This document shows, piece after piece, positions 1-40,094 of a DNA stretch of 40,094 nt. A model generated the notes under the pieces. It worked only from the letters and a program-made list of their open reading frames with translations, ran no database searches and had not been told where the DNA came from. The stretch lies in the IMG/VR virus record IMGVR_UViG_3300045988_174260, one strand, 5' to 3'. Source of the DNA: a virus. A program made the position numbers and the translations under genes. How positions within the stretch are numbered: the first letter of the stretch is position 1; the number at the start of each line of letters is the position of its first letter.

Positions 1-157
1 TTTTCTTCTCCATTGTTGTATCGGTTTTCTTCTCCATTGTTGTATCGGTTTTCTTCTTCATTGTTGTATCGGTTTTCTTCTCCATTGTTGTATCGGTTTT
101 CTTCTTCATTGTTGTATCGGTTTTCTTCTCCATTGTTGTATCGGTTTTCTTCTTCAT
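1..157. repeat. 24-bp tandem direct repeat with 6 full units plus a 13-nt partial unit. Consensus is TTTTCTTCTYCATTGTTGTATCGG, and position 10 is C or T in the pattern C,C,T,C,T,C,T.
   Basis: Read directly. Units lie at 1-24, 25-48, 49-72, 73-96, 97-120 and 121-144, with the partial unit at 145-157. There are no spacers between units. The array continues from the right end of the window. Confidence 0.97.
1..157 (-). CDS. N-terminal part of the octapeptide-repeat protein. The ORF starts at ATG 157-155 and continues across the circular junction into 40039..39771.
   Basis: The minus-strand frame through the 24-bp array is open and reads MKKKTDTT MEKKTDTT MKKKTDTT MEKKTDTT MKKKTDTT MEKKTDTT MEKK-. 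The ATG at 157-155 overlaps the TGA of the upstream micropeptide ORF (ATGA). Confidence 0.6.
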   Translation of the reverse strand, partial: MKKKTDTTMEKKTDTTMKKKTDTTMEKKTDTTMKKKTDTTMEKKTDTTMEKK

Positions 158-249
158 AGGCCGATTGCGTATAAAAAACTAATCCAAATTATTGCACCAG
201 CAATTAAAACAATTAAATCTTCTATTTTTTCTTTTATTTTTTTATTCAT
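154..249 (-). CDS. Unannotated 31-aa micropeptide, MNKKIKEKIEDLIVLIAGAIIWISFLYAIGL. It has a charged N-terminus followed by one predicted transmembrane helix.
   Basis: Hand translation of the minus strand. Its ATG (249-247) overlaps the TGA of the amidoligase ORF (ATGA). Its TGA (156-154) overlaps the ATG of the repeat protein (ATGA). It falls below the 60-aa cut-off of the ORF track. Confidence 0.5.
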   Translation of the reverse strand: MNKKIKEKIEDLIVLIAGAIIWISFLYAIGL

Positions 250-1496
250 ATATTTTCGAGTAATTTATATAATTCTTTTGTCATACATTTTTCTCTTAGA
301 AAAGATATATATTTCGGAGCAATCTCCTTTAATTCTAATAATGATATTTCTCTATTCTCCATCGCGAAGAGATAAGTAAAGTAGCAAAAATCTACTATTG
401 TTTTAATCCTTTCTTTTTTGACTGTTCCCTTGCCCCTCCTAAATTCTATTGTGGCATTATTACTGAAATTTAATTCACAATACCTATTATTCGAAATTTT
501 ATCAAAGAGGAGCTTTTGGCCTTTTGGGGATGCAGAAATAGGGTGGACGCCGTATTGTTTTAGCTCACAAACACCCGGAATTGTGAAACAGTATTGATTG
601 TTATCTCTTCCAAATATTTTATTAACCAGTTCGTAAGAAAGAGAGTAAAAACATTTTTTCAGCAAAAGTTCTACACTTCTTTCACACTTGATTCGTGAAA
701 CGTGAACATGTAGCCCCGTTTCTTTAGTTGATTGAGAATAAGAGCCGAATAACGGGAAAAATTCTTCGCATAGCAAATCAATAGCTCCATTTTTTTTCAA
801 CAATGATTCAATAGGCAAAGGTCGGGTAGTTAGTTCTGTTCCTCCTCTTTCGTCACGTAAGGAGCCGTCATGCTGGAAGTAAAAAAAATTAGAAAACTTA
901 TTGTAAATAGAACGGTTTTGGTGATAAAATTCTATTTCCAACCCTACAAGGGGAGCTTTTAGGGTTGAGTTTTCAGGGATCCAACCATGAGGCCGAAAGT
1001 GGTATCCGTTCATTTTTGTTTCTATCAAGTCTTTTTCCGAAAAATCACTTATAAGGAACTCCTTTGTGCTTAAATATCTCAAAGCCGGGAAGACATGCTC
1101 TATTATATAACTCCACTCTTTTTCCGGGATTTGTTTTAAAGTGAAGGCATCTAAGAAGCACTTAAAGATTTTTATAAAATCACTAGAGTATTTTTGTTTT
1201 TGGTTTAGCTCTTTGTCGGGAACTGGAATTATTGTTTGAGAAAAAAAATTACACATTGCCCATAGAGTTGCGTTCCTTATCAATTTAAAATTTTTTTTCT
1301 CAAGCACAATCCCGTTTAAATCTTTAACTCCTGCAAACCGCAAAAAAGCGGTTGCTTTTCTCCTTCTTAAATACAAGTCCTTTGCTTGTTGCGTCTTGTA
1401 GCCAAAATCAAAAATTTTATTTTCACAAAACAAATAGTAATTCTCTCTTACAAATTGTTTCAGAAATTCTACTTTATCTTTTTCTTTTTTATTCAT
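246..1496 (-). CDS. Amidoligase_2-type (glutamine-synthetase/GCS2-like) COOH-NH2 ligase with an unknown N-terminal domain of about 180 aa.
   Basis: The C-terminal half carries the ordered motifs GLEIEF, DGSLRDERGGTELTTRP, GLHVHVS, NRYCELN and ATIEFRRGKGT. These match my recollection of the Amidoligase_2 (PF12224) signature: GxExE, ExxS/TxP, GxHVH, RYxxxN, EFR. Confidence 0.72.
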   Translation of the reverse strand: MNKKEKDKVEFLKQFVRENYYLFCENKIFDFGYKTQQAKDLYLRRRKATAFLRFAGVKDLNGIVLEKKNFKLIRNATLWAMCNFFSQTIIPVPDKELNQKQKYSSDFIKIFKCFLDAFTLKQIPEKEWSYIIEHVFPALRYLSTKEFLISDFSEKDLIETKMNGYHFRPHGWIPENSTLKAPLVGLEIEFYHQNRSIYNKFSNFFYFQHDGSLRDERGGTELTTRPLPIESLLKKNGAIDLLCEEFFPLFGSYSQSTKETGLHVHVSRIKCERSVELLLKKCFYSLSYELVNKIFGRDNNQYCFTIPGVCELKQYGVHPISASPKGQKLLFDKISNNRYCELNFSNNATIEFRRGKGTVKKERIKTIVDFCYFTYLFAMENREISLLELKEIAPKYISFLREKCMTKELYKLLENI

Positions 1497-1497
1497 G

Positions 1498-2070
1498 TCA
1501 AATAATGATTCGGAGGTTTTCGTTTTTAGTATTCAGACCTGAATAAGTTTTCCATATGTCTCCAATAATTGAATTAGAATCGTGCAGTTTATAAAAGATA
1601 TTTTCGCTCAAATTCACCAACAACCCTTTTTTTTGTAAAATAATCCCACATTTTTTATAGTATTTTAGAGCTAAAAATTTGTTTGAAGAAAAGGCCCTAG
1701 TGATTGGATAGCTACTATTTAGTTTTTTTTCCTCATATTCGGGGAAATGGCCTAGGGTCGGTTTTGTTTTAAAACGGGCAGATGATAGCGGTTTAACCCC
1801 AACAATATAAACACCGGCGTTTTTTTTCCCGCCAGAAGTCCTAAGAACCGGCAAATAACCTAAAGTGTTTCCAAAAACAAAAATAGGGCTGATAAGCGTT
1901 TTTTGAGTTGTACCGGTATCTAAATTTTCTATTTTCGCGAAAAAATAAACGCTAATAAAGGATTGTAGGTCTCTAATTACAGAGCAATCATCTTGAGCGT
2001 GAATGGTTCCAGAATAAGCGGGAATTCTGCTTTTCGCGGTCCTGTATAGTTTTATTGAGTATTTATGCAT
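1498..2070 (-). CDS. Hypothetical protein (190 aa).
   Basis: Long ORF in a tightly packed minus-strand operon. There is 1 nt between its stop and the next start. No motif recognised. Confidence 0.6.
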   Translation of the reverse strand: MHKYSIKLYRTAKSRIPAYSGTIHAQDDCSVIRDLQSFISVYFFAKIENLDTGTTQKTLISPIFVFGNTLGYLPVLRTSGGKKNAGVYIVGVKPLSSARFKTKPTLGHFPEYEEKKLNSSYPITRAFSSNKFLALKYYKKCGIILQKKGLLVNLSENIFYKLHDSNSIIGDIWKTYSGLNTKNENLRIII

Positions 2071-2082
2071 GTTTTTTTAGAG

Positions 2083-2499
2083 TTATTCCCCGTAAAGGAA
2101 TTTTTTTGTGTTTAAAATTTCACCTTTATATGAAATTTTAAAATCTTTATTTTTCTCTACGCATAAGTGCGCATGAAGGAAAGCTTGCTCTTTTGTTAGT
2201 TTTATTGTTCGTGAGGGCAGGAACATAAATTTTTCTTCTAAAGCTTTATGCCAAATTTCATTTATTTCTCCAAATATCACTATTCCGAGACAAGGATAAT
2301 GTGCTTTTTCTTTGATTTGTATTTTTCTGTTTTTTTGCAAAATAAGAATTAGGCCTTTCTCTGTTTTTTTTAGTTCTTTAATTATTGTTACAACAGATAA
2401 AACGCTTCTTTTATTTTCTTTTAAAAAAATAATGATATGTGTTTTTTTTATTATTATTTTTTTTGAAGCATCTATAATGTTTTGAATTTCAACATTCAT
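2083..2499 (-). CDS. Hypothetical protein (138 aa).
   Basis: ORF in the same operon with AT-rich codon usage consistent with its neighbours. Confidence 0.55.
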   Translation of the reverse strand: MNVEIQNIIDASKKIIIKKTHIIIFLKENKRSVLSVVTIIKELKKTEKGLILILQKNRKIQIKEKAHYPCLGIVIFGEINEIWHKALEEKFMFLPSRTIKLTKEQAFLHAHLCVEKNKDFKISYKGEILNTKKFLYGE

Positions 2500-2782
2500 C
2501 GAGCGTCAAGGTTTTGAAGTTAAATCTATATTCTAATCCGTCCTTTAAAGGAGCCTTCCTAAAATCGCTCAATAAGTCTCCTTCGGGGCGGTTTTCTAGG
2601 CGAAAAATGAGCTTTCGAGGTTTTTTGGAGACGTCAAAAACCTCAATAATTGAGCCTAATCTCCAATCAGCTTTTATCATGCGGTGAAAGGTTCTAAGCC
2701 CGTGTGAAAAATTTAAATAAAGAACAGGGCAAACACGCCTTTCTTCTTGAGGGTTTTCAAACTCAAATTCAAAAACTTTCAT
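2489..2782 (-). CDS. Hypothetical protein (97 aa).
   Basis: ORF overlapping the downstream gene by 11 nt, which is typical operon packing. Confidence 0.55.
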   Translation of the reverse strand: MKVFEFEFENPQEERRVCPVLYLNFSHGLRTFHRMIKADWRLGSIIEVFDVSKKPRKLIFRLENRPEGDLLSDFRKAPLKDGLEYRFNFKTLTLDEC

Positions 2783-2786
2783 AGCT

Positions 2787-3134
2787 TCAAAAATATGCGA
2801 GATTATAAAAAATTAAATTTTCAAAAGGTGTTATCTTGTGCCATTTTATATAAATTCCAACTATTTCCGTTTTTGGTTCAAAGTGGTAATTATAAATAAA
2901 TTCCTTAAAATATTTATCTTCTTTCTTTTTTATTATTTCTATAGCATTAAATCTGATGCCGTTTAGCAAATCTATTAGTATTTTTTGTTCCAAAACGTTG
3001 GATAAGTTTTTTTTAAGCTGATATATTCGCCCTTGTTTTTCAAGGCTGATTTTTCCTTTTAGCTTTAAGTCTGTGTCTTTTCCTAAAAAATAGGCGACGG
3101 CTCCAAAATTTGTTGTATAATCAATAGAACTCAT
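2787..3134 (-). CDS. Hypothetical protein (115 aa).
   Basis: ORF in the operon. No motif recognised. Confidence 0.55.
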   Translation of the reverse strand: MSSIDYTTNFGAVAYFLGKDTDLKLKGKISLEKQGRIYQLKKNLSNVLEQKILIDLLNGIRFNAIEIIKKKEDKYFKEFIYNYHFEPKTEIVGIYIKWHKITPFENLIFYNLAYF

Positions 3135-3414
3135 ATTCCCTTTTCAAAAAAAACATATTGCTATAGTTAACGTCATAAAACAGTGAATTTCTTTTTTTCA
3201 AAATCTCTTCAAAGGATGATTTGCTTCTTTTTTGCTCTTCTATCATTGCGGATTCAGGGAAGGCATGAGCAAAATCAATATGCGCTTCGAGGTTTGGCAA
3301 TTCCTCCCCCGTTACTGGTCCTGCAAAGATAAAATAAATATTAGCGCGAACGAAAACAAAATACTTATCTTCTCTCTTTTTTTTAAAAACTTTCACAATA
3401 TGTTTAGCGTCCAT
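3121..3414 (-). CDS. Hypothetical protein (97 aa).
   Basis: ORF in the operon, overlapping the downstream gene by 14 nt. Confidence 0.55.
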   Translation of the reverse strand: MDAKHIVKVFKKKREDKYFVFVRANIYFIFAGPVTGEELPNLEAHIDFAHAFPESAMIEEQKRSKSSFEEILKKRNSLFYDVNYSNMFFLKREYEFY

Positions 3415-3446
3415 TAAGTGCGAAATTTACATGGTTAAAAAATTCT

Positions 3447-3593
3447 TCAGGCGATAAAAAAGTAAAGATAGTCTCGTAAGTCTTCTGCCTCCGTTACTAA
3501 TTCCAAAGCGTATTGTTTTACGCCTTTTTTCCATTTAGTTCGGGCGGGGCTTTTCAATATTTTTTTATTACTTCTTCTCTGTTGTTTTTTCAT
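3447..3593 (-). CDS. Unannotated small basic protein (48 aa): MKKQQRRSNKKILKSPARTKWKKGVKQYALELVTEAEDLRDYLYFFIA.
   Basis: Hand translation. Its ATG lies 1 nt downstream of the stop of the 3595..3834 ORF. It fills an otherwise empty 180-nt gap in a dense operon. Confidence 0.4.
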   Translation of the reverse strand: MKKQQRRSNKKILKSPARTKWKKGVKQYALELVTEAEDLRDYLYFFIA

Positions 3594-3594
3594 T

Positions 3595-3834
3595 TTATTT
3601 TATTCTTTTCTTCATGCCTTTTACTAACTCGCTCGCCCGTTTAGAGACGTTATCCTTAGTTCCTACGACAAAGGTTTGCCAACCGCAATTCATGCACCCG
3701 TATTCATAACTTCCCTTAGGGTTCTGCAATGTCTCATAAACCAAAACGTCCATCGGAAGCCGGCAAAATGGGCATCGCAACTTTTTAAATTTCTCTTGTT
3801 TCTTTTTTCCCATGTTTTTTGTTTTTTCTCTCAA
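3595..3834 (-). CDS. Small zinc-ribbon protein and first gene of the leftward operon. Possible nucleic-acid-binding regulator.
   Basis: Two Cys pairs, CPFC and CMNC, are spaced about 26 aa apart. Both termini are basic. Confidence 0.6.
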   Translation of the reverse strand: MREKTKNMGKKKQEKFKKLRCPFCRLPMDVLVYETLQNPKGSYEYGCMNCGWQTFVVGTKDNVSKRASELVKGMKKRIK

Positions 3835-3877
3835 GGGGTCTTTCTCTATTCTTCCTTCCGTCCCCTTTCATGTTTTT

Positions 3878-3905
3878 ATTCTATCTTTTTTCCCTCATAA
3901 GTCAA
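3878..3905 (-). promoter_or_regulatory. Sigma70-like promoter candidate for the leftward operon: TTGACT-N16-TAGAAT on the minus strand.
   Basis: The reverse complement of 3900-3905 is TTGACT and that of 3878-3883 is TAGAAT. The spacer is 16 nt. It lies about 45 nt upstream of ATG 3834. Relevance depends on the host, which may not use sigma70-type consensus promoters. Confidence 0.3.
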
Positions 3906-3975
3906 CAACTTTTATTTCTTTTTTTCTCAATTAGCAAGTTTTTTTCTCTCTCCCTCTAACCTCTTGTCAAACTGG

Positions 3976-4055
3976 TTTTTCCTCTTTCTCTTCCCTCCTC
4001 TTCCCTCCTCTTTCGCCTCCCTCCTCCCTCGGGGGGGGGCCTTTAGGGGGGGGGG
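3976..4055. repeat. Low-complexity, structure-prone tract. A 55-nt polypyrimidine run (one purine) contains TTCCCTCCTC twice. It is followed directly by G9, CCTTTA and G10.
   Basis: Read directly. 3976-4030 is all C/T except g4014. G9 is at 4031-4039 and G10 at 4046-4055. Confidence 0.9.
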
Positions 4056-4939: not shown

Positions 4940-5401
4940 ATGAGGGAAAAGGGAGAAGAGAAAGAGAAGAAAGAAATGGCGAGAAGAAGAGGAGACGTAG
5001 AGATGAACGTGAAATTAGTGAGAGAGTTGGTGGAAGAAGTGAGGGGGGAATTGGAGCGAGGGGAGGTGAGGACGGTAGAGGAGGCGTTATCGAAGCGAGG
5101 AGTGAGCCGGAAGCTGTTTAGGGAGATGGGGGGAATAGAGGAGTGGAAGGGAGAGAGGAGGAGAGGCGAGAGAGGAGGAGAGGAGCGGGAAGAGGAAGAG
5201 GAAATGGGGAAAGAGGAAATGGGGAAGTTTTTAAGTAGAGTGATAAGAGGGAGGGAGCTAGGGATGGGGGGAAAGGAGAAGATGAGTGCGGTAGGGTTGT
5301 ATATGAGGTTGAAGGGATGGGACAAGGTGAAAGAGGAGAGGGAGGAGCTGGTAGGAGAGGAGATGAGAGAGCTGCTGAAAAAAGACAAAGAAAAGAGTTG
5401 A
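4940..5401 (+). CDS. Highly charged E/R/K/G-rich protein (153 aa) with a possible helix-turn-helix.
   Basis: The ORF track gives 4850..5401. I moved the start to ATG 4940, where the purine-rich coding composition begins. A possible HTH is TVEEALSKRGVSRKLFRE. The frame choice is uncertain because stop codons are rare in all + frames here. Confidence 0.45.
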   Translation: MREKGEEKEKKEMARRRGDVEMNVKLVRELVEEVRGELERGEVRTVEEALSKRGVSRKLFREMGGIEEWKGERRRGERGGEEREEEEEMGKEEMGKFLSRVIRGRELGMGGKEKMSAVGLYMRLKGWDKVKEEREELVGEEMRELLKKDKEKS

Positions 5402-20269: not shown

Positions 20270-22222
20270 ATGGCGACCTACGACACAAGAGATATTAGGA
20301 TGGGTGTTACCGGTTCGAATAAGGAGGGGTTGCTTACTTCTCCGTCTAACAGGTACTTGCGCTCTACTTACGATACGGCGAGATATGTTCCTATCGGCAA
20401 CGAGTTTGACAAGGAAAGCCGGGAAAGGGAGCTGGGTAATCTAGGAGAAGGTTTGTCCCTATGGGCCAAAGCACAGGCCGAGGTGGAGACGACTAACGAC
20501 AGTATCCAGTCGAGGCGCATGGCGGCAGAGTACATGGAAGCCTCAACGCAGGTTTTCAACCAGTTGCAAAACGACCCAAGCACGATGAACAACCCTGCCG
20601 TGTGGCTGGACGTGTACACGGAGGAAATGACATCAAGGATTGCGGAGATAAATAATAATTATTCTAAATCTTTTTATGTTGGTCGCAATCAACTCATGTC
20701 TAACGAGCAACTTAATTTGCTGTTAAAAAAGGAGAAGAATAATGTGGCCCTGATGGCGGCAGACCGGGTATCAAAAATGGCTGCTGACGAGACAAACGCC
20801 TCCCTGAAAGTGGCAATAGCTAACAGGGATTTCGGACTGGCTAAGGAGATAAACCAAAGTCCCTACTTAACTCCTGCCCAAAAGATTTTGAATGAGAATG
20901 AAATCACTGGTGCTCAAACACAGGATATAATTCAGCAGTCAGTCTTGAGAGACCCGTGGGGCGTTGTAGAGGAAGTGAACAGGGATGGGTCCGTACAACG
21001 TCGAGAACTCACCTATGAGCAACAGCAGTACGCAATGAATCAAGCGCAGGGGCAGATAAGCACGACTCAAAAGCAATCGTACGATTCTCTCGTACAGAAG
21101 TTTTTGTTTAACCCGGAAGAGTTTGACTTGAACGTGGCAAACAAGTTGCTGAAAAACAACCATTTGACTACCCAGCAATACGTTAATCTTCTGAACATGA
21201 AGAAAAAAATGAGCGCCAAGGTAGAGCCGACGCCGATGCAGTTTAAGGCAATGTCGGAATGGGCAACGAAGCTGTCAGAGGGATATGCCAAGGAATCTCC
21301 CGAAGGCAAAGCAAATATCCTTTCGCAAGCCGAACGTCTTTTTGACAGCATGAATTTCAGCACCAGCGACAAGAATGCTCTGGTTAAGCTGGTAACGCAA
21401 AAGATTTCCCCTGAAACGTTCAATCAGGCTGACAAGTTGGTAGAGAAGTTTTGGGATAACGGCCAACTACCTCTGACCAAGACAGCGGATTACACCGGAA
21501 CTCAAGGAGGAACTACTCCGATTTATTTGACGGAGGGAGAGTTTAATACGCAGTTCAAAGAGAGGAAGAACCAGTTTTTCTTAGACAAAAGCAGGACATA
21601 CCTAGACCCGAAAACGGCAAAAGAACGTTTTGCTGTGATGGAGTATGTGCCGGACTCGAACAATCTGTTCCTGCAAGAAAAGATAAAAAGCGAAGTTCGT
21701 TCCGTCCTTTCTGATAAGATTGCTGAATATAGGGCAGAACACAATGGGAAATCTCCTACCGGACAAGAGCTTTATGAGCTTGTTTTTTTCGCACAAGAAG
21801 AGGCGTTCTCCCGGAATAATATCAGCAGTATTGACCCATTATCTTCTGCCTCTGTTTATCCTTCTGGACAGCAAGACAGAGACGAAAGAAAGGCGACATT
21901 TATTCCGAACAACGTTAGAGTGTCGGCTATATCGAATAAAGCTTCTATAGATATTCCGACTAATGGTGCTTTTATTGTTTGGGCCGGAAGTAACTCTTTC
22001 ATTACAAACGAGAAAGACTACTTGAGCATATATAAACGGGCCGGGGCGCCCCCTCAAGGATTTATCGTAGCAGATGAATCTTTCCTCCAAGCTCCACACA
22101 AAGATTTAATGGATGTGCAAGCTATGATTTCGGCCAAAGCGATAGCGGCGAAAGCTGGATTAGATGCACAAGGAGAGCAGGGAATTTATTGTGCATTGCT
22201 TTCCTATTGGAATAATTTATAA
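20270..22222 (+). CDS. Internal virion/ejection protein candidate (650 aa).
   Basis: It occupies the T7 gp15-like position. Its start abuts the upstream stop (TAAATG). No catalytic motif recognised. Confidence 0.55.
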   Translation: MATYDTRDIRMGVTGSNKEGLLTSPSNRYLRSTYDTARYVPIGNEFDKESRERELGNLGEGLSLWAKAQAEVETTNDSIQSRRMAAEYMEASTQVFNQLQNDPSTMNNPAVWLDVYTEEMTSRIAEINNNYSKSFYVGRNQLMSNEQLNLLLKKEKNNVALMAADRVSKMAADETNASLKVAIANRDFGLAKEINQSPYLTPAQKILNENEITGAQTQDIIQQSVLRDPWGVVEEVNRDGSVQRRELTYEQQQYAMNQAQGQISTTQKQSYDSLVQKFLFNPEEFDLNVANKLLKNNHLTTQQYVNLLNMKKKMSAKVEPTPMQFKAMSEWATKLSEGYAKESPEGKANILSQAERLFDSMNFSTSDKNALVKLVTQKISPETFNQADKLVEKFWDNGQLPLTKTADYTGTQGGTTPIYLTEGEFNTQFKERKNQFFLDKSRTYLDPKTAKERFAVMEYVPDSNNLFLQEKIKSEVRSVLSDKIAEYRAEHNGKSPTGQELYELVFFAQEEAFSRNNISSIDPLSSASVYPSGQQDRDERKATFIPNNVRVSAISNKASIDIPTNGAFIVWAGSNSFITNEKDYLSIYKRAGAPPQGFIVADESFLQAPHKDLMDVQAMISAKAIAAKAGLDAQGEQGIYCALLSYWNNL

Positions 22223-22229
22223 ACAAATC

Positions 22230-25200
22230 ATGGAAGAGCTTTCAGAACAACCCGAAGATTCTATCCTGTTGGATGAAATAAAGAAAATGAATTCGGGCCT
22301 CGCTTCTAATAAGGAGCAACCTGAAATAACAGAAGAGGATTTAGAAGCAAATCCTCAAGCTTACTCTTCTGAACAAATTGAAGGGGTTTTAAGAAACAAG
22401 AGAAGTATTCGCACAAAGCTTGACGATTATTTAAGGATGTCGTCTAGCTTGCTTCCTACTACTCCGCGAGAAGCCTTAGATGCCGTAGGGACATTGCGTG
22501 AGGAACTGCAAGCAAATGGTATAGACCCGGAGTATGAGAGGTATCGTGAGAAGATAAAAAGAAACGAAGATATAGTTTATTCGGTTACTAGGTATATCAA
22601 TCCAACAACAGGCTTGTTTGGGGATGTTCCTGCACAAGATGTAACAAACAATAAGCTGGAAAAAATACTTAGTGCTGAGCAAATTAGGGATTTCAATAAT
22701 GCCCCGCAGTTTATGCGAGACAAATATGTTTTCAATCGCATTGTTGAAAACTTTTTCCCGGAAGGGGAGATGGATAAAGGGTATGCACTAGAACTCCTGA
22801 AAAAGCATTATCAAACCGACTCAATGCACGGAGTTGTCAGCAAATACGCTCAAGAGCTTCAAAGGAACAAGGATGAGGAGACAGCATACAATGAAGCCTC
22901 TACCAGATTTTTCGATTCCTTTATAGAAACAGGAGGCGATTACCAGAAAGCAATCGACAGCTTGGAAGGCAATCTAAACCTGTATGCGGAAAACATTTTC
23001 AACCAAGAACCTGCGCTTAAATACATTTACCAGCGTGCGTATAACTCCGTCTCATGGATTAAAGATGAATACATAGAAAGCGGAGAGCTGGATTGGGACA
23101 AGATGGCAGACAGGTTGTTGAAGCTTGGGGAAGGAGAGACGTTCTCTCTAGCCATTCAGATGCTTCCCTACATGTTGCCCAAAGACGACAGGACTTGGCT
23201 AACCCAAGCCATAGACGACACCGCCTCTGATGTCTCCCGCTTTGCTAGGCTCATGGTTGACGGAGGAGGTGATAGCGCCCAAGCAGAACGCCTTGCGTTG
23301 GCTATCCAGCAGGAATATCGTCAGGGCCGAGACATGCCTACATCGTGGATAGGGAGAGCTTTTAAGGCGGCGACAGACCAAGTTCCGAAGGTGGCGGCAG
23401 TAACCGGAAGCTCTCTTTTGGCTTCACCGGGTGGGCCTGTAGCAATGGCCGCCACAGGAACAGCTGTCGGCTCAATGGTGTATGGTTCAACGGTAGGTCT
23501 TGAGGCATATAGGACGAATTCTTCTAGGGCAGGAGCATTGACATATGGTGTTACTGTTGGGGCCTTGGAAGGTCTCCTTGAAAACGTAACTCTTGGCGTT
23601 GGTGCTTTGGCCTCCAAAGGTATTAAGGTGGCAGAGGCAGGTAGGAAAATGGCCTCTGTTGCCGGAAGAGTTCCCGCTACCGTAAGAGGTGCGGCGGCTG
23701 GTGCTTTGTCTGAATATACCCAAGAAGTCATTGCTGACCCAATTTATGTTGGATTGGAGAATGTAATGCGCTCTGCGGGGTTTGAGCTTACCCAGCAAAA
23801 CACCCTTAAAAACTGGTGGGAAACATTGGACTTCACATCCCCTGAACTATTGGGGGCTACAGCCATTCTTGGAGGCTCCATTGGTGCTGTTGGGGGCTAT
23901 CAAGCTAACCACCTCATCAACCGAGTAGGAAGAAGCGCTTCGGCTCTTCAAGCTTATGGTGTACCCGAATCGGAAGCTGTGGCTATTGCCGAAATGCCAG
24001 ACGGCAAGGAGCGCACAAACAGGCTTATATCGGCCCTTCGCAATAACCGGGTAAGCCCCGACGTGCAAATAACAAACCAGCAAGCGGGGATATTCCTGAA
24101 CTTTTTAGCTAAGAATGCAGAGAGGTTTAAGGATGTTGAGCTGATGCCGGAGATATCCGACAACGGGGACGGAACCTTTAATATTGTTGAGAGAGACCCG
24201 GTAAGTGGAGCTGAAAAAGTAACCACAGTAACAGACGAAATCGCAGGGACGTTCATGTCTCAAGCGTTGCAGTCAAATCCGGGATTTATCAGGGCATTAA
24301 ATATTTTCGCCCAAGAAGAGATAGAGTCAGGGGTGGGCAAGGAGACGAAGATAAAGAGCTATACTCCTGACGAACTCCGAGCAAAAATCCAATCCACAGA
24401 AGACAACAATGCAACTATAGCACGACTTAGGGCTTTGGCTGTAATTAACCAAGACCCGGAATTGTTGCAGAGTTTTCGTGATGGGAAAGTAAGTATTGAA
24501 GATGTAGCAAATGAGCTGGAAATTGTATCTGCATATAGAGATGGCACGATTGCTGTTGCGAGGGGTGAAGCGAATCCTCTCAATATTCTCGAAGAAATAA
24601 TTCATGCCCGCGCCATATCTGATTTGGAGAGCGGCGTTATTTCCAGAGATGTTATTGAAACACAGGTAAGGAATTACTTGGAATTCTTGGGCCGCAGTAG
24701 CGAAGAAATAGGGGACTTGAGCAATGACGTTCTGTTGCAGGAGCATCTTGCCAATATGGGGAAAGCTTTAGCTACAACGCCAGAGTTGTTTTCCTCCATG
24801 CCGGGGAATGTTCAGACAATTTTGGAGTGGCAGAAAGACGCCATTGCGGAAGTCGGCAATATTTTTGAAGAAGGCAATCTGATAAGAGAAGCCATTGAGC
24901 AGGGAGTTGTCTCTTCCGATTTTGTTAAATGGTCTAAATCGTTGGCGACAATGGCCGAGCGTCGTGATGGACAGGACGTTGGCGAGCTTATCAATGGAGC
25001 AACGGGCGAAAACATTTTGCCGATGGGGAAAACTCTTCCTTCTGCGAGGAGGAGAGGAACAATAGATGTAACTCCTTCTATTAAAACCATTAACGAAGCT
25101 ATCAAGAGCATTGTTGAAGGGACATCGGAAAGGGCAGTAGGACAGCTTCATAAATTGCAGAGAAGCATGACCAAGCTTTCCGAAAGGTTTTCACAAGGCA

Positions 25201-28200
25201 AGCTAACAGAGAGGGGACAGCAGAAAGCATTGCTGAACTCTGTCCTCTCTATCGCTAATGCTATGGCTTCGGGGAGCCGGAAGTTTATTTCTAACCAACT
25301 TGCTGACAGGCTGGCTAATCCGAAAAGCAATGAGGCCTTCAATGCGGACATGAAAACAGCTCTTGATGCGACCGTTAGAGCGTTGAATGAAAGGGCAGAG
25401 GAAGCAAGCCGAAAGCAACTGGAACGTCTTATTCAGGACGAAATAAAGAGGCGTGTTGAACAAGCTGACGCTAAAGCTAAGAAGGATTTCAGCAGGGAAA
25501 TGAAGTTCCTGCGTAGTCTTATCTCGAAAGAAATCCGCAAGGACATTAAGGAAGAAAGAGCAGAGGCGGCGGCAGAGAAGAAGCTTGCTACTAAAAGCAT
25601 AGAGAGCTTGCGGAGGTTAGCGGAAAATGCCTTCAAAGACACTAAAGGACGTTCGCGTTCTTTAGACGCACAAGCTAGAGAGGAAACTATGGACGCTCTG
25701 ACGGTTATGGCTATGTCTCCCGAAGAGGTTGCAGTCCAGCTGGAAACCTTGGATAGCACCATAGATGAGCTTCAAAACCAGAAGGCATCAGAAGAGAATG
25801 CTCTAGAGTTGGAAAACTTGGAAAACCAAAAGAACCTCCTCGAGGTATTTGGGAGTGCGTTGTATCGGGAAAGGATGCCCAACGGAAGGTACAAATACGC
25901 ACTTAATGCTCAACAGCTCGCAGAAGCGGTTAAGACACTGAAAGAGCTACAGCGAGAAGGACGGCTTCGGAGAAAGAAAGTTAATGAGCAGATTGAGCGT
26001 TTCTATAACAAATTCAACGCAGTCATCAACGAGCGGGTAGGAGGGGAGAATAATCGTGATGCCCTTAGAAAGGCTGTATTGGAGCGAGACCAAAGAGGCA
26101 CAGGCTTTTTGGACAGAATCTTTACAGGATTCATGAGCCTTCAACAGCTCCTTGAAGTTCTCTCTTCGATGAAAGACTTTAAGGATATAGGAACGTTCTT
26201 GCAAAATAATGTTCAATACGCAGAACAACAGCGAGGAGTAGAGAAGGAAAAGGCTACGTCTCATGCCGTTCGTATCATGCGGGGAATGATGGAGAGAGCG
26301 GGGCAGAATTCGCCTAGGTATTTTGACCAGCTTTCCACCAAAACCATATCCTTCATGGGCCACGAATTAACCAAGTATGGCCTAGTCAAAGTCTATCAGA
26401 CGTTAAGGGAAAAGGACGGCTTAGACGTATTGCGGGAAAACCTTGGCAACAAGGGCATGGATTTTGGCAATTATCGAAAATATCAGCAAGAGCTTGAGGC
26501 CTTAAACAAAGGCCTTGCTGATGGCGCCTTAACTTCCGAAGAGTATGACGCCAATGCGGAAGTTATTGAAAACGAATACCTTGAGAGAAAAGAAAAGGAT
26601 ATTTCCAAGCTTTTGGAAATCCTTGGTCCGGACGGCCTGTATTTAGCGGACGAACTGCAAAACCTGTATCGAGAAAAAGGTGAGAAGCTTCGGGCGTTCA
26701 TGGCAGAGAACTATGGACAAACGGTAATTCTAGATGACTACTATACGCCCCGCAACATCGCGGCTTACAACACCATGCAAGAAGGCGACATGGAAAGTTA
26801 CAGCAAGGGCCACATTTCAAGAACAGGATTACCCTCTTACGCGAAGCATAGAAACACGCCGTCTTCCGCAGCCTTGTCTTTGGAGATAAACCCTCTTGGA
26901 GAGTATCTTCGGTACAGCTCTATCATGGAAGGGTGGATGACAGCCTACGAACTAGTCAACTTCAACAACCGAGTTTGGGCTAATCCTACCACCAACGCAC
27001 AGTTACAGAAATTATTAGGCCCTGCCAATTATGAGACGGCCAATAAAGACCTTTATTACTTCATCAATGAAGGCCGTGTGTATGCGCAAAAGAGTGTGTT
27101 GGCAGAGGTGATGGGGAAAGTGTTTCAAGTGTTAGCTAAGACTAGGATTGCCTTCTCTTTAGCTTCTTTGGTGCGCTCTGGGGCGGCTATATTCAACCCT
27201 CTTGTGGGAAGCAATTTCTCATCAATGGAAATCATTAGAGGGTTTGCAGGCATCGCTTCTGGGAACTATAAGGGGTTCTCGATTGAAGAGCTTAGGGACT
27301 TGGAAGCCATGAAGGAGCGCAAATACAGAGGATGGGAAGACCGTGTGCTGGCTGAAAAAGCATTAAGCATACCCCTGAAAAAACAAGCGCAATGGGGATA
27401 TTGGCAGGAAGCCGGCATGAGCGGGTTAATTGGTTTCGACTGGTGGAGTATTTCAAGGGCTAACATGCTAACGTCTCACATGCTTGCAAAGCGTGGTTTG
27501 TCACATGAACAGATAAGGTGGGAGCTTAATAAGAATATCTATCAGACAGCACAGCCTTTATCAACTTCGGCCAAAGCTTCGCACTTGTTAGGCGGTAGTG
27601 CTTTTGAGGCATCCCAATTCTTATTCCTTTCCGACGTAATGAACAAATTCGGCATGGTTGTAATGCAGGGCAAAAAGGGCGATTGGCTAGGCGCATTCCG
27701 AGTTTATACTATTGCGGCTATAGCTAATGGCCTTTTCAATGGTTTGGCAACTGCTTTGTTTGGAGACAAGGATAAAGAGGATGAATTTGTGGACAACCTC
27801 TTCTTCACAGCCGTCCTAAGCCCGATAGTTTCAGTCCCGATGTTTGGAGGCTTTGCGGAATGGGTATTGTCCGAATTGAGCGGAAAACAATATTCGCTTG
27901 GACGGGCTGACATGGCTGACCTTTCAAGCACGATTCAGAACCTAGTCAGAAGTATTGTAAAAACATACGAAACAGTTTCAGAGAAATGGGATAAGGAAGG
28001 AGCTTTGACTTTCAATGATTACGCCGATATGGTTTCTTACTTAGGAAAGAACATTGGTAGTGTGGCGACTGTTTCAACTGCTTTTGGTTCTTCTGGACAG
28101 AGCGTAACTAAATCTCTGGAAATGGTAGGCGCATTGTCGAATGCCCTTTCTCAAGTGAAGACGACCGCTCAAAAGGCACTCCCGGAGCCAATCAACCCGC

Positions 28201-28364
28201 TTTATACGGAGAAGGAGGAAATGAAGGAAAGAGCGCGACAGCTCAAGAAAGCTAAGAGAGAAGCGAAGAGGGAAAACGGCGAAAGGTCAGCAACCTACAG
28301 AAAACTTTCTAGGGAATTAAGACAAATAAACAAACTACTCAAGATTAGAGGCTGGGAAGACTAG
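22230..28364 (+). CDS. Giant internal virion/ejection protein (2,044 aa) in the T7 gp16-like position.
   Basis: I moved the start to ATG 22230, just after the upstream stop at 22222. Gly/Ala-rich hydrophobic segments lie near residues 400-520. A long charged coiled-coil region lies near residues 1030-1200. Hydrophobic segments lie near the C-terminus (IAAIANGLFNGLATALFG, AVLSPIVSVPMFGGF). Confidence 0.6.
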   Translation: MEELSEQPEDSILLDEIKKMNSGLASNKEQPEITEEDLEANPQAYSSEQIEGVLRNKRSIRTKLDDYLRMSSSLLPTTPREALDAVGTLREELQANGIDPEYERYREKIKRNEDIVYSVTRYINPTTGLFGDVPAQDVTNNKLEKILSAEQIRDFNNAPQFMRDKYVFNRIVENFFPEGEMDKGYALELLKKHYQTDSMHGVVSKYAQELQRNKDEETAYNEASTRFFDSFIETGGDYQKAIDSLEGNLNLYAENIFNQEPALKYIYQRAYNSVSWIKDEYIESGELDWDKMADRLLKLGEGETFSLAIQMLPYMLPKDDRTWLTQAIDDTASDVSRFARLMVDGGGDSAQAERLALAIQQEYRQGRDMPTSWIGRAFKAATDQVPKVAAVTGSSLLASPGGPVAMAATGTAVGSMVYGSTVGLEAYRTNSSRAGALTYGVTVGALEGLLENVTLGVGALASKGIKVAEAGRKMASVAGRVPATVRGAAAGALSEYTQEVIADPIYVGLENVMRSAGFELTQQNTLKNWWETLDFTSPELLGATAILGGSIGAVGGYQANHLINRVGRSASALQAYGVPESEAVAIAEMPDGKERTNRLISALRNNRVSPDVQITNQQAGIFLNFLAKNAERFKDVELMPEISDNGDGTFNIVERDPVSGAEKVTTVTDEIAGTFMSQALQSNPGFIRALNIFAQEEIESGVGKETKIKSYTPDELRAKIQSTEDNNATIARLRALAVINQDPELLQSFRDGKVSIEDVANELEIVSAYRDGTIAVARGEANPLNILEEIIHARAISDLESGVISRDVIETQVRNYLEFLGRSSEEIGDLSNDVLLQEHLANMGKALATTPELFSSMPGNVQTILEWQKDAIAEVGNIFEEGNLIREAIEQGVVSSDFVKWSKSLATMAERRDGQDVGELINGATGENILPMGKTLPSARRRGTIDVTPSIKTINEAIKSIVEGTSERAVGQLHKLQRSMTKLSERFSQGKLTERGQQKALLNSVLSIANAMASGSRKFISNQLADRLANPKSNEAFNADMKTALDATVRALNERAEEASRKQLERLIQDEIKRRVEQADAKAKKDFSREMKFLRSLISKEIRKDIKEERAEAAAEKKLATKSIESLRRLAENAFKDTKGRSRSLDAQAREETMDALTVMAMSPEEVAVQLETLDSTIDELQNQKASEENALELENLENQKNLLEVFGSALYRERMPNGRYKYALNAQQLAEAVKTLKELQREGRLRRKKVNEQIERFYNKFNAVINERVGGENNRDALRKAVLERDQRGTGFLDRIFTGFMSLQQLLEVLSSMKDFKDIGTFLQNNVQYAEQQRGVEKEKATSHAVRIMRGMMERAGQNSPRYFDQLSTKTISFMGHELTKYGLVKVYQTLREKDGLDVLRENLGNKGMDFGNYRKYQQELEALNKGLADGALTSEEYDANAEVIENEYLERKEKDISKLLEILGPDGLYLADELQNLYREKGEKLRAFMAENYGQTVILDDYYTPRNIAAYNTMQEGDMESYSKGHISRTGLPSYAKHRNTPSSAALSLEINPLGEYLRYSSIMEGWMTAYELVNFNNRVWANPTTNAQLQKLLGPANYETANKDLYYFINEGRVYAQKSVLAEVMGKVFQVLAKTRIAFSLASLVRSGAAIFNPLVGSNFSSMEIIRGFAGIASGNYKGFSIEELRDLEAMKERKYRGWEDRVLAEKALSIPLKKQAQWGYWQEAGMSGLIGFDWWSISRANMLTSHMLAKRGLSHEQIRWELNKNIYQTAQPLSTSAKASHLLGGSAFEASQFLFLSDVMNKFGMVVMQGKKGDWLGAFRVYTIAAIANGLFNGLATALFGDKDKEDEFVDNLFFTAVLSPIVSVPMFGGFAEWVLSELSGKQYSLGRADMADLSSTIQNLVRSIVKTYETVSEKWDKEGALTFNDYADMVSYLGKNIGSVATVSTAFGSSGQSVTKSLEMVGALSNALSQVKTTAQKALPEPINPLYTEKEEMKERARQLKKAKREAKRENGERSATYRKLSRELRQINKLLKIRGWED

Positions 28365-37909: not shown

Positions 37910-38326
37910 ATGACAGGTGACATGTCTATAAATAGCCGCATGCAGAAAGAACTACCACAAGAACAACTGTCGGCATTTTCTAAGTTTGCAGTCCAGAACG
38001 AAGAGTTGTGCAAGCTCATGATGCAAAGAGTGGGATTCAAAATCACTCCAATGGTTTGGAACAAAGCGAAATGGAATCCGGCTCAAATGTCTGTCAAAAA
38101 GCTCACCCACCTCCGCGCCTTTTATCCTGCGGCATTTGGGTTAGAGGATGAGCCTAATAGCGATTTTTTGAAGTCTCTGTACTACCTCCACATTTCCAAC
38201 AGAATACTTTCAGGAGAAATTGAACCTCTTATTGAAGATAAGGATTTTGCGACCTATATGCCTTACGCCCATTTTGTTTTACCGATAGACGATTTTACAA
38301 AAAACGCCCTTTCTAAATTCATGTAA
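37910..38326 (+). CDS. Hypothetical protein (138 aa), possibly a replication initiation partner by position.
   Basis: The track ORF is 37823..38326. I moved the start to ATG 37910 to clear the divergent 37002..37880 gene. It lies upstream of the DnaC-like ATPase. Confidence 0.45.
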   Translation: MTGDMSINSRMQKELPQEQLSAFSKFAVQNEELCKLMMQRVGFKITPMVWNKAKWNPAQMSVKKLTHLRAFYPAAFGLEDEPNSDFLKSLYYLHISNRILSGEIEPLIEDKDFATYMPYAHFVLPIDDFTKNALSKFM

Positions 38327-38335
38327 AAAACGAAA

Positions 38336-38968
38336 ATGAACTATCCACTTGACGACTATCCGCTAGAAGAAATGGAACGAAAATCTGTTCCGAGGTTGGT
38401 AAAAGACATTTTAGATTTAGACCAATTATTGAAAGGGTTAGATAAAATACCGCTAACAAGTGAAGAAGAAAAGGAAGAGTGGAGAAGGAAGGAAAAAGAG
38501 AAAGAAAGGGTGAAAGGCTGGGAAAAACGGCTAAAAGAATCAGGCGTTCCTTTAGCGTTTTACCAAGCTTGCGTTCAAAAAAAAATCGTTCAATGCAAGC
38601 TTTTCCCGGGGATGAATCAAGTAAAAGCTCGTAGCTGGTTTTTTGCCTCTTCGAAGAAAGGGAAAACCTTTTCCGCTTGCAACCTAATTGCGAAAGAATT
38701 GTGGGAGGGAAGAAGAGGGTTGTATTTAAAGGCCGTCGACCTAGAAAGAGAATTATCAAGTTTTCGTCCTCAAGAAGAACTCTTAAGGAAATATCAAAGA
38801 GTACCTTTTCTTGTAGTGGACGATTTTGAAGGAATGCGGATGAGTGTGAATTCATCCTGCAATTTTATAGCATTCCTCAAAAAAAGAAACGATTCCGGAT
38901 TGTGCTCTTTTATTATAATGAGAGAACGTACTTTTTTTGCGGAACAGATAGAACGGGCGACTACTTGA
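38336..38968 (+). CDS. DnaC/IstB-like AAA+ ATPase, a putative helicase loader.
   Basis: Walker A is ASSKKGKT (AxxxxGKT) and Walker B is FLVVDDFE. The 210-aa size fits. Confidence 0.55.
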   Translation: MNYPLDDYPLEEMERKSVPRLVKDILDLDQLLKGLDKIPLTSEEEKEEWRRKEKEKERVKGWEKRLKESGVPLAFYQACVQKKIVQCKLFPGMNQVKARSWFFASSKKGKTFSACNLIAKELWEGRRGLYLKAVDLERELSSFRPQEELLRKYQRVPFLVVDDFEGMRMSVNSSCNFIAFLKKRNDSGLCSFIIMRERTFFAEQIERATT

Positions 38969-39008
38969 GCAAAACAATAAGTAACACGGAATAAGATTGT
39001 TATAAAAA

Positions 39009-39041
39009 AGCCCTGTAGCCATTTTCGTAGGCTACAGGGCT
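39009..39041 (-). terminator. Intrinsic terminator for the leftward (amidoligase/GATase) operon. It may act weakly in both directions.
   Basis: AGCCCTGTAGCC (39009-39020) pairs with GGCTACAGGGCT (39030-39041) as a 12-bp perfect stem with a 9-nt loop. On the minus strand the stem is followed by TTTTTTATA. Confidence 0.8.
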
Positions 39042-39065
39042 TGAATGCCGGATTTTTATGACAGA

Positions 39066-39755
39066 CTATTGCACTCTCTTTTCAGGTATTAAAACGTTAT
39101 TTAATGAATAGTATTTTTTTGTATAGTGATATTTTTTAGAATACTTTGAATAACCTAAATTGTGATTGTAGTAAAGTTCATCTCCATACGATGAACAAGT
39201 GTATTTAGCATTATACTTTAGATAAGAAGAGTTAGAGAAATAGGCAAATTTATTTTTATCTGGTCTTTGAAAATCGCCATAAAAAAGCATCTCTCCTTTT
39301 TTCCAAAATACAAATTTATTTGAGCCGAGGACGGCATTAACCATGTTGTCTATATCGTCATTGTTTTCCTGGATGCAATACTCACCAAAAGCTGGCAAAA
39401 ATAGGTATCGGAAAAAAGTTTCGCTATCTGTTAGATCGTCTTTGTTTTTAATGCTCAAGATTCCATTATGGCAAAAGTACCAGCCATTTCCATTCCAGCC
39501 ATGAACGTTTTTTTCTGAAATTGAGCCATGCGTTTTGATGCGAGCATGCAAGAGGACAACATAATCTTTTGGGATTGTGTTCCACAAATTAACAATTTCT
39601 TTTTTTAAAAGGGTACGAATAAAATATTCTGGCTTTTCTTGGCATGTACCTCTTTTAAATGCGGCTAAAAAGAAGCCGTCAGGGTTGTTTGTGATGCAAT
39701 TTTGAAAATGTTGATTGCCAATATCTTTTTTGATTCCGTACGCGATAATACACAT
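39066..39755 (-). CDS. YafJ-type class-II glutamine amidotransferase-like Cys-Ntn amidohydrolase.
   Basis: The N-terminus is Met-Cys (MCIIAYG). The motifs LLHARIKTHG, NVHGW, FCHNGIL and LTDSETFFRY line up by eye with E. coli YafJ (AHIRQANRG, THPF, AHNGQL, ETDSEKAF, recalled from memory). Confidence 0.78.
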   Translation of the reverse strand: MCIIAYGIKKDIGNQHFQNCITNNPDGFFLAAFKRGTCQEKPEYFIRTLLKKEIVNLWNTIPKDYVVLLHARIKTHGSISEKNVHGWNGNGWYFCHNGILSIKNKDDLTDSETFFRYLFLPAFGEYCIQENNDDIDNMVNAVLGSNKFVFWKKGEMLFYGDFQRPDKNKFAYFSNSSYLKYNAKYTCSSYGDELYYNHNLGYSKYSKKYHYTKKYYSLNNVLIPEKRVQ

Positions 39756-39770
39756 ATTGTTTTTTCTAGT

Positions 39771-40094
39771 TTAGTTTTTTCCGTATTTATCAATGATAGA
39801 TTTAACGCCTAGAGTTAATTCTAGGGCTAATTTTTCTTCTTCTTGTGTTTCGTAAAATATTTTTATGAAAGTATATTGCCATTGAGGTGAATATGACATT
39901 TTCATGCCTTTTTTGATTAAATAGTTTATGACGTCCTGCCTTATCTTTCCAAATGTTTCTGCTGATAGTGTTTTTTTGTAAACATTTACAAATTCAATGT
40001 TTAAACTGCCAACCAAGGAAGAGATGCAACACTCTAGCTTTTTCTTCTCCATTGTTGTATCGGTTTTCTTCTCCATTGTTGTATCGGTTTTCTT
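39771..40094 (-). CDS. Body of the octapeptide-repeat protein. The reconstructed circular ORF is 39771..40039 plus 1..157, about 141 aa. No recognisable domain.
   Basis: The ORF track gives 39771..40076. The frame stays open to the window edge (KKTDTT precedes Met 40076). The C-terminal roughly 90 aa are non-repetitive (KLECCISSLVGSLNIEF...). Confidence 0.65.
   Translation of the reverse strand, partial: KKTDTTMEKKTDTTMEKKKLECCISSLVGSLNIEFVNVYKKTLSAETFGKIRQDVINYLIKKGMKMSYSPQWQYTFIKIFYETQEEEKLALELTLGVKSIIDKYGKN
40040..40094. repeat. Exact 55-nt copy of window positions 1-55. This is a terminal overlap of a circularly closed contig.
   Basis: 40040-40094 compared base by base with 1-55: identical. 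The window ends before the next position can be compared (position 56 is c). Confidence 0.95.

Follow-up and report, generated by a model that had tools for sequence, protein, structure and literature searches.

A phage operon pairs a predicted stand-alone Cys-Ntn amidohydrolase with a divergent Amidoligase_2 enzyme

Enzymes of the Amidoligase_2 family share the fold of glutamine synthetase and gamma-glutamylcysteine synthetase and act as ATP-dependent carboxylate-amine ligases. A phage module in which such a ligase (PF12224) is paired with a protein resembling the class-II glutamine amidotransferases (GATases) was reportedly predicted by computational means by Iyer, Abhiman, Burroughs and Aravind in 2009, and the pair is annotated in phages of the phiEco32, LUZ24, tf, Marvin and MEP401/402 types. 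The present analysis concerns another pair of this kind, found in the IMG/VR virus record IMGVR_UViG_3300045988_174260, whose whole stretch of 40,094 nucleotides is referred to here as the window. An earlier reading of this DNA, the initial annotation, had drawn attention to the pairing. The pairing is not new; it is already annotated in the last four of the phage groups just named and can be traced to the 2009 prediction. The window pair is a divergent member of this known phage module, with an unusually small core of its N-terminal nucleophile (Ntn) hydrolase and two inserted genes. It does not represent a new kind of system, and an ordinary biosynthetic amidotransferase it is not either.

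Outside the phages, EgtC is a stand-alone, class-II GATase-like Ntn hydrolase with a cysteine nucleophile (Cys-Ntn), which removes the gamma-glutamyl group installed by EgtA, a ligase of the amidoligase fold class. The enzymes PuuA and PuuD follow a comparable course, with the ATP-dependent gamma-glutamylation of an amine and the subsequent hydrolytic removal of the glutamyl group by a GATase-like thiol hydrolase. For the ligase and GATase-like pair of phages, which is widespread, the roles published so far, in cell-wall modification and in auxiliary nitrogen metabolism, were deduced from annotation.

The two partners are encoded on the same strand of the window:

39066 to 39755, minus strand: Cys-Ntn class-II GATase-like hydrolase of 229 aa (core residues 1-180, tail 181-229)
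246 to 1496, minus strand: divergent Amidoligase_2 enzyme of 416 aa (PHROG amidoligase families 7469 and 2443, E ~5e-6)

Profile searches and modelling indicate that the first of these proteins is a stand-alone Cys-Ntn amidohydrolase of the class-II GATase superfamily, with the YafJ/EgtC type (GATase_4) as its nearest sequence family. It is the dedicated partner of the Amidoligase_2 enzyme, and both belong to one operon. The probability that this identity and the membership in the phage module are both correct is put at about 0.95.

The translation of the hydrolase open reading frame (ORF) begins with MCIIAYG and contains the motifs HARIKTHG (residues 70-77), HGW (85-87), HNGIL (96-100) and DSETFF (110-115), in full agreement with the initial annotation, which had described a 229-aa ORF with a Met-Cys start and had quoted these four motifs. 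Searches of a large protein collection gave 253 homologues, and the Met-Cys start is present in 240 of the 247 family members that are complete at the N-terminus. In an alignment of 29 homologues reaching down to 33% identity, the residues C2, N24, G27, F28, H70, R72, T75, H76 and G77 are invariant or nearly so, as are H85, H96, N97, G98, D107 and the run T109-D-S-E-T-F114. The Pfam model GATase_4 matches the window protein over residues 53-117 with 17.7 bits, which is under the gathering cut-off of 23; it is matched by 28 of the 29 homologues at E <= 0.01 (best 5.3e-11), GATase_6 by 7 of the 29 only. As the protein's own GATase_4 score falls below the cut-off, its family placement is drawn from the profile of the family and from structure.

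Searched against the PDB, the family profile finds 3mdn (2e-6) and the glutaminase domain of GlmS (1xff, 1e-3), and also 1te5. The AlphaFold2 model of the window protein has a predicted local distance difference test score (pLDDT) of 81.7, mostly above 90 over residues 1-180, and a predicted template modelling (pTM) score of 0.76. Foldseek matches this model with a probability of 1.0 to the GlmS glutaminase domain, to EgtC with its natural gamma-glutamyl substrate, to PurF, to 1te5 and to 3mdn, with template modelling scores (TM-scores) of only 0.45-0.56, and further to models of phage Gn_AT_II and YafJ proteins. The modelled chain has the four-layer alpha-beta-beta-alpha arrangement of Ntn hydrolases. 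Thus profile search, model and Foldseek all give the class-II GATase fold, which bears out the Cys-Ntn assignment of the YafJ type made in the initial annotation; the same searches dispose of the unrelated fold that it had named as the outcome that would speak against it. The defence-system library PADLOC holds no match for the Ntn protein.

The residues expected of a glutamine-type active site can be followed through these comparisons. In the search of the family profile against the PDB and in an hhalign alignment with GlmS, which reaches residue 108 only, R72, T75, H76, N97 and G98 of the Ntn protein align with R73, T76, H77, N98 and G99 of GlmS. In class-II GATases the arginine and threonine at these positions bind the alpha-carboxylate of the substrate, the Asn-Gly pair forms the oxyanion hole and an aspartate binds the alpha-amino group. 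This aspartate would be D110, which is invariant in the TDSE motif and, judging from the position of the motif inside the Pfam match (53-117), probably corresponds to D123 of GlmS. As far as sequence and modelling allow, the catalytic apparatus and the fold of a Cys-Ntn glutamine-type amidohydrolase can be considered established.

The characterised relatives resemble this protein to different degrees. EgtC, which acts in mycobacterial ergothioneine biosynthesis together with EgtA (PDB 4zfj, 4zfk and 4zfl), is among the top structural matches, at about 13-14% identity and a TM-score of about 0.45-0.5, which is no better than GlmS. No NCBIfam model matches the window protein, and the homologue from locus L002 reaches 21 bits against the EgtC equivalog TIGR03442, for which the cut-off is 218.65. 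No EgtB-, EgtD- or EgtE-like enzyme and no enzyme modifying an intermediate was recognised in the window operon. With the glutaminase domains of GlmS and PurF the Ntn protein has in common the fold, Cys1, the Arg-x-x-Thr-His motif, the oxyanion Asn-Gly and the T-D-S/T-E motif; unlike it, those domains are fused to a synthase domain of the SIS, phosphoribosyltransferase or AsnB type. The core of about 180 aa presumably has about 12 residues fewer between HNG and TDSE than GlmS. Hydrolases of the PuuD type belong to the class-I (triad) GATase-like proteins, in contrast to the Ntn class seen here, and the Puu-type pathways have oxidising enzymes between the two steps, of which none is evident in the window operon.

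The phage module predicted in 2009 is the closer parallel. Both families are present in the window and share one strand, the ligase gene preceding the Ntn gene, in an early or accessory region of a tailed phage and with no acceptor synthase. The window differs in that its Ntn protein and its ligase both score below the Pfam cut-offs, in that the ligase has no match among cultured phages, and in that a transmembrane micro-ORF and a protein with a variable-number tandem repeat (VNTR) lie between the partners. The companions seen in LUZ24-type phages, namely a second COOH-NH2 ligase, an ATP-grasp protein and an AIG2/gamma-glutamyl cyclotransferase (GGCT), were not found in the window operon.

The Pfam score of the ligase itself is weak (E = 0.025 against Amidoligase_2), and 12 of its 13 aligned relatives match the same model, the best at 2.8e-8. 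Its alignment has the invariant motifs GxExE, DGS, GxE, GLHVH, R and TxEFR, a set of acidic and His/Arg motifs. No cultured phage was matched by tblastn with the window ligase, neither the ligase nor its profile gave a meaningful match in sequence searches of the PDB, and a locus search with the ligase profile gave almost solely close relatives. One weak match to the PADLOC library, PDC-S58 (E = 1.6e-4, residues 333-411), may reflect nothing beyond shared amidoligase ancestry. The ligase of a distant relative (L002-L004, 4447-5931) contains in its N-terminal half many CxxC pairs resembling repeated zinc ribbons, which the window ligase does not have, and some phage ligases of 630-970 aa carry uncharacterised N-terminal regions. 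The long N- or C-terminal extensions of the ligases and of the Ntn proteins contain no Pfam domains.

How closely the two genes belong together was surveyed in 71 IMG/VR loci with relatives of the Ntn protein, which were scanned with profiles of both proteins and contain 75 Ntn genes. An amidoligase gene lies on the same strand within 1 kb of 67 of the 75 (59 upstream, 8 downstream only). The gaps between ligase and Ntn genes are mostly -10 to +37 nt, the genes abutting or overlapping in most phages. Among the eight Ntn genes with no ligase beside them, four are cut by the contig end and one (L036) was missed through the overlap cut-off; in at least one further exception (L030) the Ntn gene is preceded by a short ligase-like ORF. 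Adjacency of the pair is also seen in loci of metagenome-assembled genomes (MAGs) of Bacteroidales and Akkermansia and in three further distant viral loci. Other arrangements consist of two ligase and Ntn pairs (L005, L006, L027), of an Ntn gene between two ligase genes (L043, L045, L056, L057, L067, L069) or of a ligase gene between two Ntn genes (L063, L066, L076).

The Ntn family comprises 254 clusters (50% identity) at E <= 1e-30. None of 282 family proteins, including members of 400-559 aa, contains a fusion to the ligase or a known synthase domain, and downstream of the window ORF there is no candidate for a synthase domain, as a disordered tail of 49 aa is followed by the terminator. 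The statement in the initial annotation that no synthase is fused or adjacent to the Ntn protein therefore extends from the window to the family. The pair is present in phages that infect Pseudomonas, Mycobacterium or marine OM43 bacteria, and in viral and MAG contigs, among them those of Bacteroidales and Akkermansia. In mycobacteriophage Marvin the pair is gp105 and gp106; gp105, considered from its annotation as a fusion of GATase and ligase, proves to be an amidoligase only, and the GATase-like gp106 comes next to it. The amidoligase of the C. difficile phage AR1086-1 has DUF1653 and RlaP as its neighbours, and neither an Ntn gene nor AIG2/GGCT. Among cultured phages the window Ntn protein is matched only by MEP401 and MEP402, to which one faecal phage record lacking annotation can be added, with about 31% identity in each case.

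The organisation of the operon becomes clear once the window is closed into a circle. Its first and last 55 nt (1-55 and 40040-40094) are identical, which is the maximal overlap, and the window is therefore a closed circular phage genome of 40,039 bp with a typical assembler overlap. The circle was cut inside a 24-nt tandem repeat, at which contigs of relatives (L011, L014, L019, L087) often break as well. The following features complete the operon:

1498 to 2070, minus strand: 190-aa protein, separated by a 1-nt gap from the ligase downstream of it and kept at this place in a sister lineage
154 to 249, minus strand: predicted hydrophobic membrane micro-ORF of 31 aa (MNKKIKEKIEDLIVLIAGAIIWISFLYAIGL), with ATGA start/stop overlaps to both neighbours
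1 to 157, minus strand: N-terminal part of the repeat protein, with the 24-nt VNTR encoding (M[E/K]KKTDTT)n and the start codon at 157-155
39771 to 40094, minus strand: C-terminal alpha/beta domain of about 90 aa and last repeat units of the repeat protein, continuing at 56-157 across the junction
39004 to 39040, minus strand: intrinsic terminator at the operon end, with a G+C-rich stem of 11-12 bp, a 9-nt loop and U6

With the 55-nt overlap removed, the repeat-protein ORF is in frame over 141 aa (157 to 1, then 40039 to 39771). The minus strand of the closed genome accordingly encodes the 190-aa protein, the 416-aa ligase, the 31-aa micro-ORF, the 141-aa repeat protein and, after 15 nt, the Ntn protein, followed by the terminator. 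The uncut relative L007 displays this order directly, with a ligase of 418 aa, a repeat protein of 115 aa and an Ntn protein of 228 aa; it has a similar micro-ORF at the corresponding position, and the 191-aa ORF preceding its ligase is 48% identical to the 190-aa protein, for which no Pfam, PHROG or PADLOC match was found. The initial annotation had described the Ntn gene as closing an amidoligase operon. It is indeed the last gene, with the ligase upstream, and this holds true only after circularisation of the window.

The end of the operon is as the initial annotation had drawn it, with a spacer of 15 nt (39756-39770) between the end of the repeat-protein ORF at 39771 and the Ntn ORF, and a terminator directly behind the latter. 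This terminator begins 25 nt past the Ntn stop codon and reads on the minus strand GCCCUGUAGCC, the 9-nt loop, GGCUACAGGGC and U6. The 81-nt stretch around it (38990-39070) folds with -27.8 kcal/mol (z = -5.95), and none of 200 shuffled sequences folds as well. It was overlooked by a simple pattern scanner because the loop limit of the scanner is 8 nt. Beyond the terminator lies a convergent DnaC-like gene. The start codons of the operon, including the one behind the spacer 39756-39770, are preceded by A-rich sequence with no clear Shine-Dalgarno motif. In the tail of the Ntn protein (residues 181-229, 39066-39212), which is predicted to be disordered, 11 of the 49 residues are tyrosines; this tail is missing from the 188-190-aa versions in the close relatives P0007, P0008 and P0010. 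Elsewhere in the family the tails are rich in Trp and Asp, or are extensions of 200-350 aa with no known domain.

For the chemistry of the pair, the active site offers the first indication. After removal of Met1, the free thiol of the cysteine would attack the gamma-amide of a glutamyl substrate with free alpha-amino and alpha-carboxylate groups, the acyl part being held by R72/T75 and D110 and the oxyanion being stabilised by N97/G98. The invariant Arg/Thr/Asp pocket points to such a glutamyl acyl group, which argues against a general peptidase that trims polypeptides, an option left open in the initial annotation. Two substrates come into question, glutamine and, as the more likely one, a gamma-glutamyl-amine (gamma-Glu-NH-R). 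The gamma-carboxylate of glutamate is the group that nearly all characterised ligases of the amidoligase fold activate, so that the product of the phage ligase would be a gamma-glutamyl amide of some amine of the host or the phage. The Ntn enzyme could then remove or turn over the gamma-glutamyl group installed by the ligase, following the logic of EgtA/EgtC and PuuA/PuuD, possibly for host takeover, a change of the cell envelope or superinfection exclusion. By analogy with these systems, cleavage of a gamma-glutamyl or glutamine-type amide related to the ligase product is the preferred reading, which we hold at a little short of even odds.

Several observations speak for cleavage. There is neither a fusion nor a synthase domain, and the nearest sequence family is of the stand-alone YafJ/EgtC type. 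The companions of amidoligases in other phages provide a further argument. A gamma-glutamyl cyclotransferase cleaves gamma-glutamyl amides and cannot supply ammonia. In prophages of Clostridium clostridioforme an amidoligase of PHROG 2443 lies two genes from a gamma-glutamyl cyclotransferase and not from a GATase-like gene (PMC11318856), and in LUZ24-like phages the GATase-like partner and a gamma-glutamyl cyclotransferase are both present (PMC3890496). The fact that a cyclotransferase can displace or accompany the GATase-like partner supports cleavage over ammonia transfer.

Against this reading stands a group of points of different kinds. Ligation followed by cleavage looks futile in the absence of an intermediate host enzyme or target, as the ligase and the hydrolase are the only universally conserved components, and no step acting between the two was identified. 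The glutamine-binding residues suit a plain glutaminase equally well, and the frequent start/stop overlaps of the ligase and Ntn genes would also suit an enzyme of two subunits. The assignment of D110 was made from motif position and not from structural superposition, the window sequences of both proteins are under the Pfam cut-offs, and literature searches gave no biochemical experiment on any member of the family. The proposal of the initial annotation that the pair ligates and then deamidates or cleaves has real precedents and is kept as the preferred reading, with the reservation that a rival based on ammonia transfer fits the active site as well.

This rival is a two-component glutamine-dependent amidotransferase, in which the Ntn protein as the glutaminase would pass ammonia to the ligase for the ATP-driven conversion of a carboxylate, such as that of a metabolite or of a peptide of the cell wall, to a primary amide. 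The initial annotation had dismissed an amidotransferase as no synthase is encoded nearby, an argument which ignores that the ATP-dependent amidoligase may itself be the ammonia acceptor. The residues with which true class-II amidotransferases bind glutamine and carry out catalysis are all invariant in the Ntn family, and the genes are nearly always adjacent and co-directional and often overlap, as is typical of subunits made in a fixed ratio. The existence of an amidoligase with no Ntn partner in AR1086-1 would be expected if free ammonia can substitute, and the two genes together would form a chemically self-sufficient unit. On the other hand, no ligase of the glutamine-synthetase fold is known to take ammonia from a GATase partner. 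Domain fusion, the rule for class-II amidotransferases, does not occur in the 282 family proteins, the nearest sequence family is of the stand-alone type, and the cyclotransferase that replaces or accompanies the GATase-like partner elsewhere is at odds with a supply of ammonia, as are loci in which one ligase is flanked by two Ntn genes. An amidotransferase of this kind is unlikely on this evidence, if still a serious contender.

The compact two-enzyme version in the window, with its 40-kb genome and clear catalytic residues, would be a convenient minimal system for deciding between ligation with cleavage and ammonia transfer; the window case alone reveals no new biology. That the pair constitutes a new enzyme system is quite improbable. 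Such a system would be either a glutamine-dependent amidotransferase built on the glutamine-synthetase fold or a switch that gamma-glutamylates and de-glutamylates a macromolecule, serving early takeover or superinfection exclusion. The target of the switch could be the hypervariable repeat protein of the clade, a component of the host envelope or a component of host defence.

A role of the Ntn protein apart from the ligase is very improbable. It would then be an enzyme of auxiliary metabolism, either a free glutaminase or a hydrolase of some gamma-glutamyl compound of the host, and would reshape the nitrogen or glutamate pools of the host during infection. The pair has been annotated as serving nitrogen metabolism, in the role of auxiliary metabolic genes (PMC10945688; PMC10580990), and the active site is compatible with glutamine. 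These published claims are annotations and not enzyme assays, and the linkage to the ligase is near-obligate, with 67 of 75 genes and close to all when contig ends are discounted.

The least favoured of the graded readings, for which the chance is very slim indeed, views the operon as a cassette for tagging or for a ribosomally synthesised and post-translationally modified peptide (RiPP), in which the ligase would place on the repeats of the repeat protein a modification that the Ntn enzyme trims, activates or reverses. Multi-core precursors of variable copy number are known from peptide natural products, the operon is a tight succession of ligase, micro-ORF, repeat protein, 15 nt and Ntn gene, and the abundant Lys, Glu, Asp and Thr of the repeats could be partners in isopeptide or ester bonds. 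However, the repeat protein is a clade-specific insertion between the ligase and Ntn genes. Its homologues are restricted to a close clade, and elsewhere the ligase and Ntn genes are mostly adjacent or overlapping. Tandem Repeats Finder gives a period of 24, 6.5 copies and 96% matches for the window; relatives carry between 0 and about 10 copies, of a unit that reads KKKTDTT, KKKTEPT, KEKTNKP or KEQ/KEP depending on the lineage and is thus not conserved in sequence. P0136, L001 and L022 keep the enzymes with zero repeats. The restriction to one clade and the variability of the repeats weaken the repeat protein as a substrate of the module, which the initial annotation had implied it to be. Moreover, what the invariant Arg/Asp pocket calls for is the free alpha-amino acid moiety of a glutamyl group and not a residue within a chain, and the repeat protein, unlike Pup, has no conserved C-terminal Gln or Glu. 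Every repeat unit has an in-frame ATG, and the VNTR could possibly provide alternative start sites or phase-variable length, or could be a product of plain slippage. The best AlphaFold2 model of the ~90-aa domain, built from a shallow alignment, has a pLDDT of 80 and the order beta-beta-alpha-beta-beta-alpha; its Foldseek matches are only generic or de novo ferredoxin-like structures, none at E <= 1e-3.

A part in thymidine hypermodification, in whose machinery GATases have been listed (PMC13229309), was set aside, since none of the window ORFs scanned, which are a part of all ORFs, could be recognised as a kinase, a dioxygenase or an amino-acid:DNA transferase.

Elsewhere in the genome, the genes for a terminase, for a portal-type connector (PHROG "head-tail adaptor"), for a major head protein and for the tail identify the virus as a tailed phage, which also encodes a RuvC-like resolvase and a PD-(D/E)XK nuclease. 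In the tail region, a 2066-aa ORF (22164-28364) and a 650-aa ORF (20270-22222) have no PHROG match, and a tRNA search of the genome found none. The ligase and Ntn genes lie in an early, AT-rich phage operon. The G+C content of this region (1-4000 and 38000-40094) is 33-36%, with the operon itself in a block of 33%, against 44-51% in the structural module (4000-30000), a sharp split suggesting that the genome is a mosaic or that early genes are under constraints of their own. The A-rich sequence before the start codons, together with the distant homologues in Bacteroidales and Akkermansia MAGs, hints at a gut host of the Bacteroidota type. A purine-rich tandem-repeat tract of the GAGGAG type occupies positions 5137-5226.

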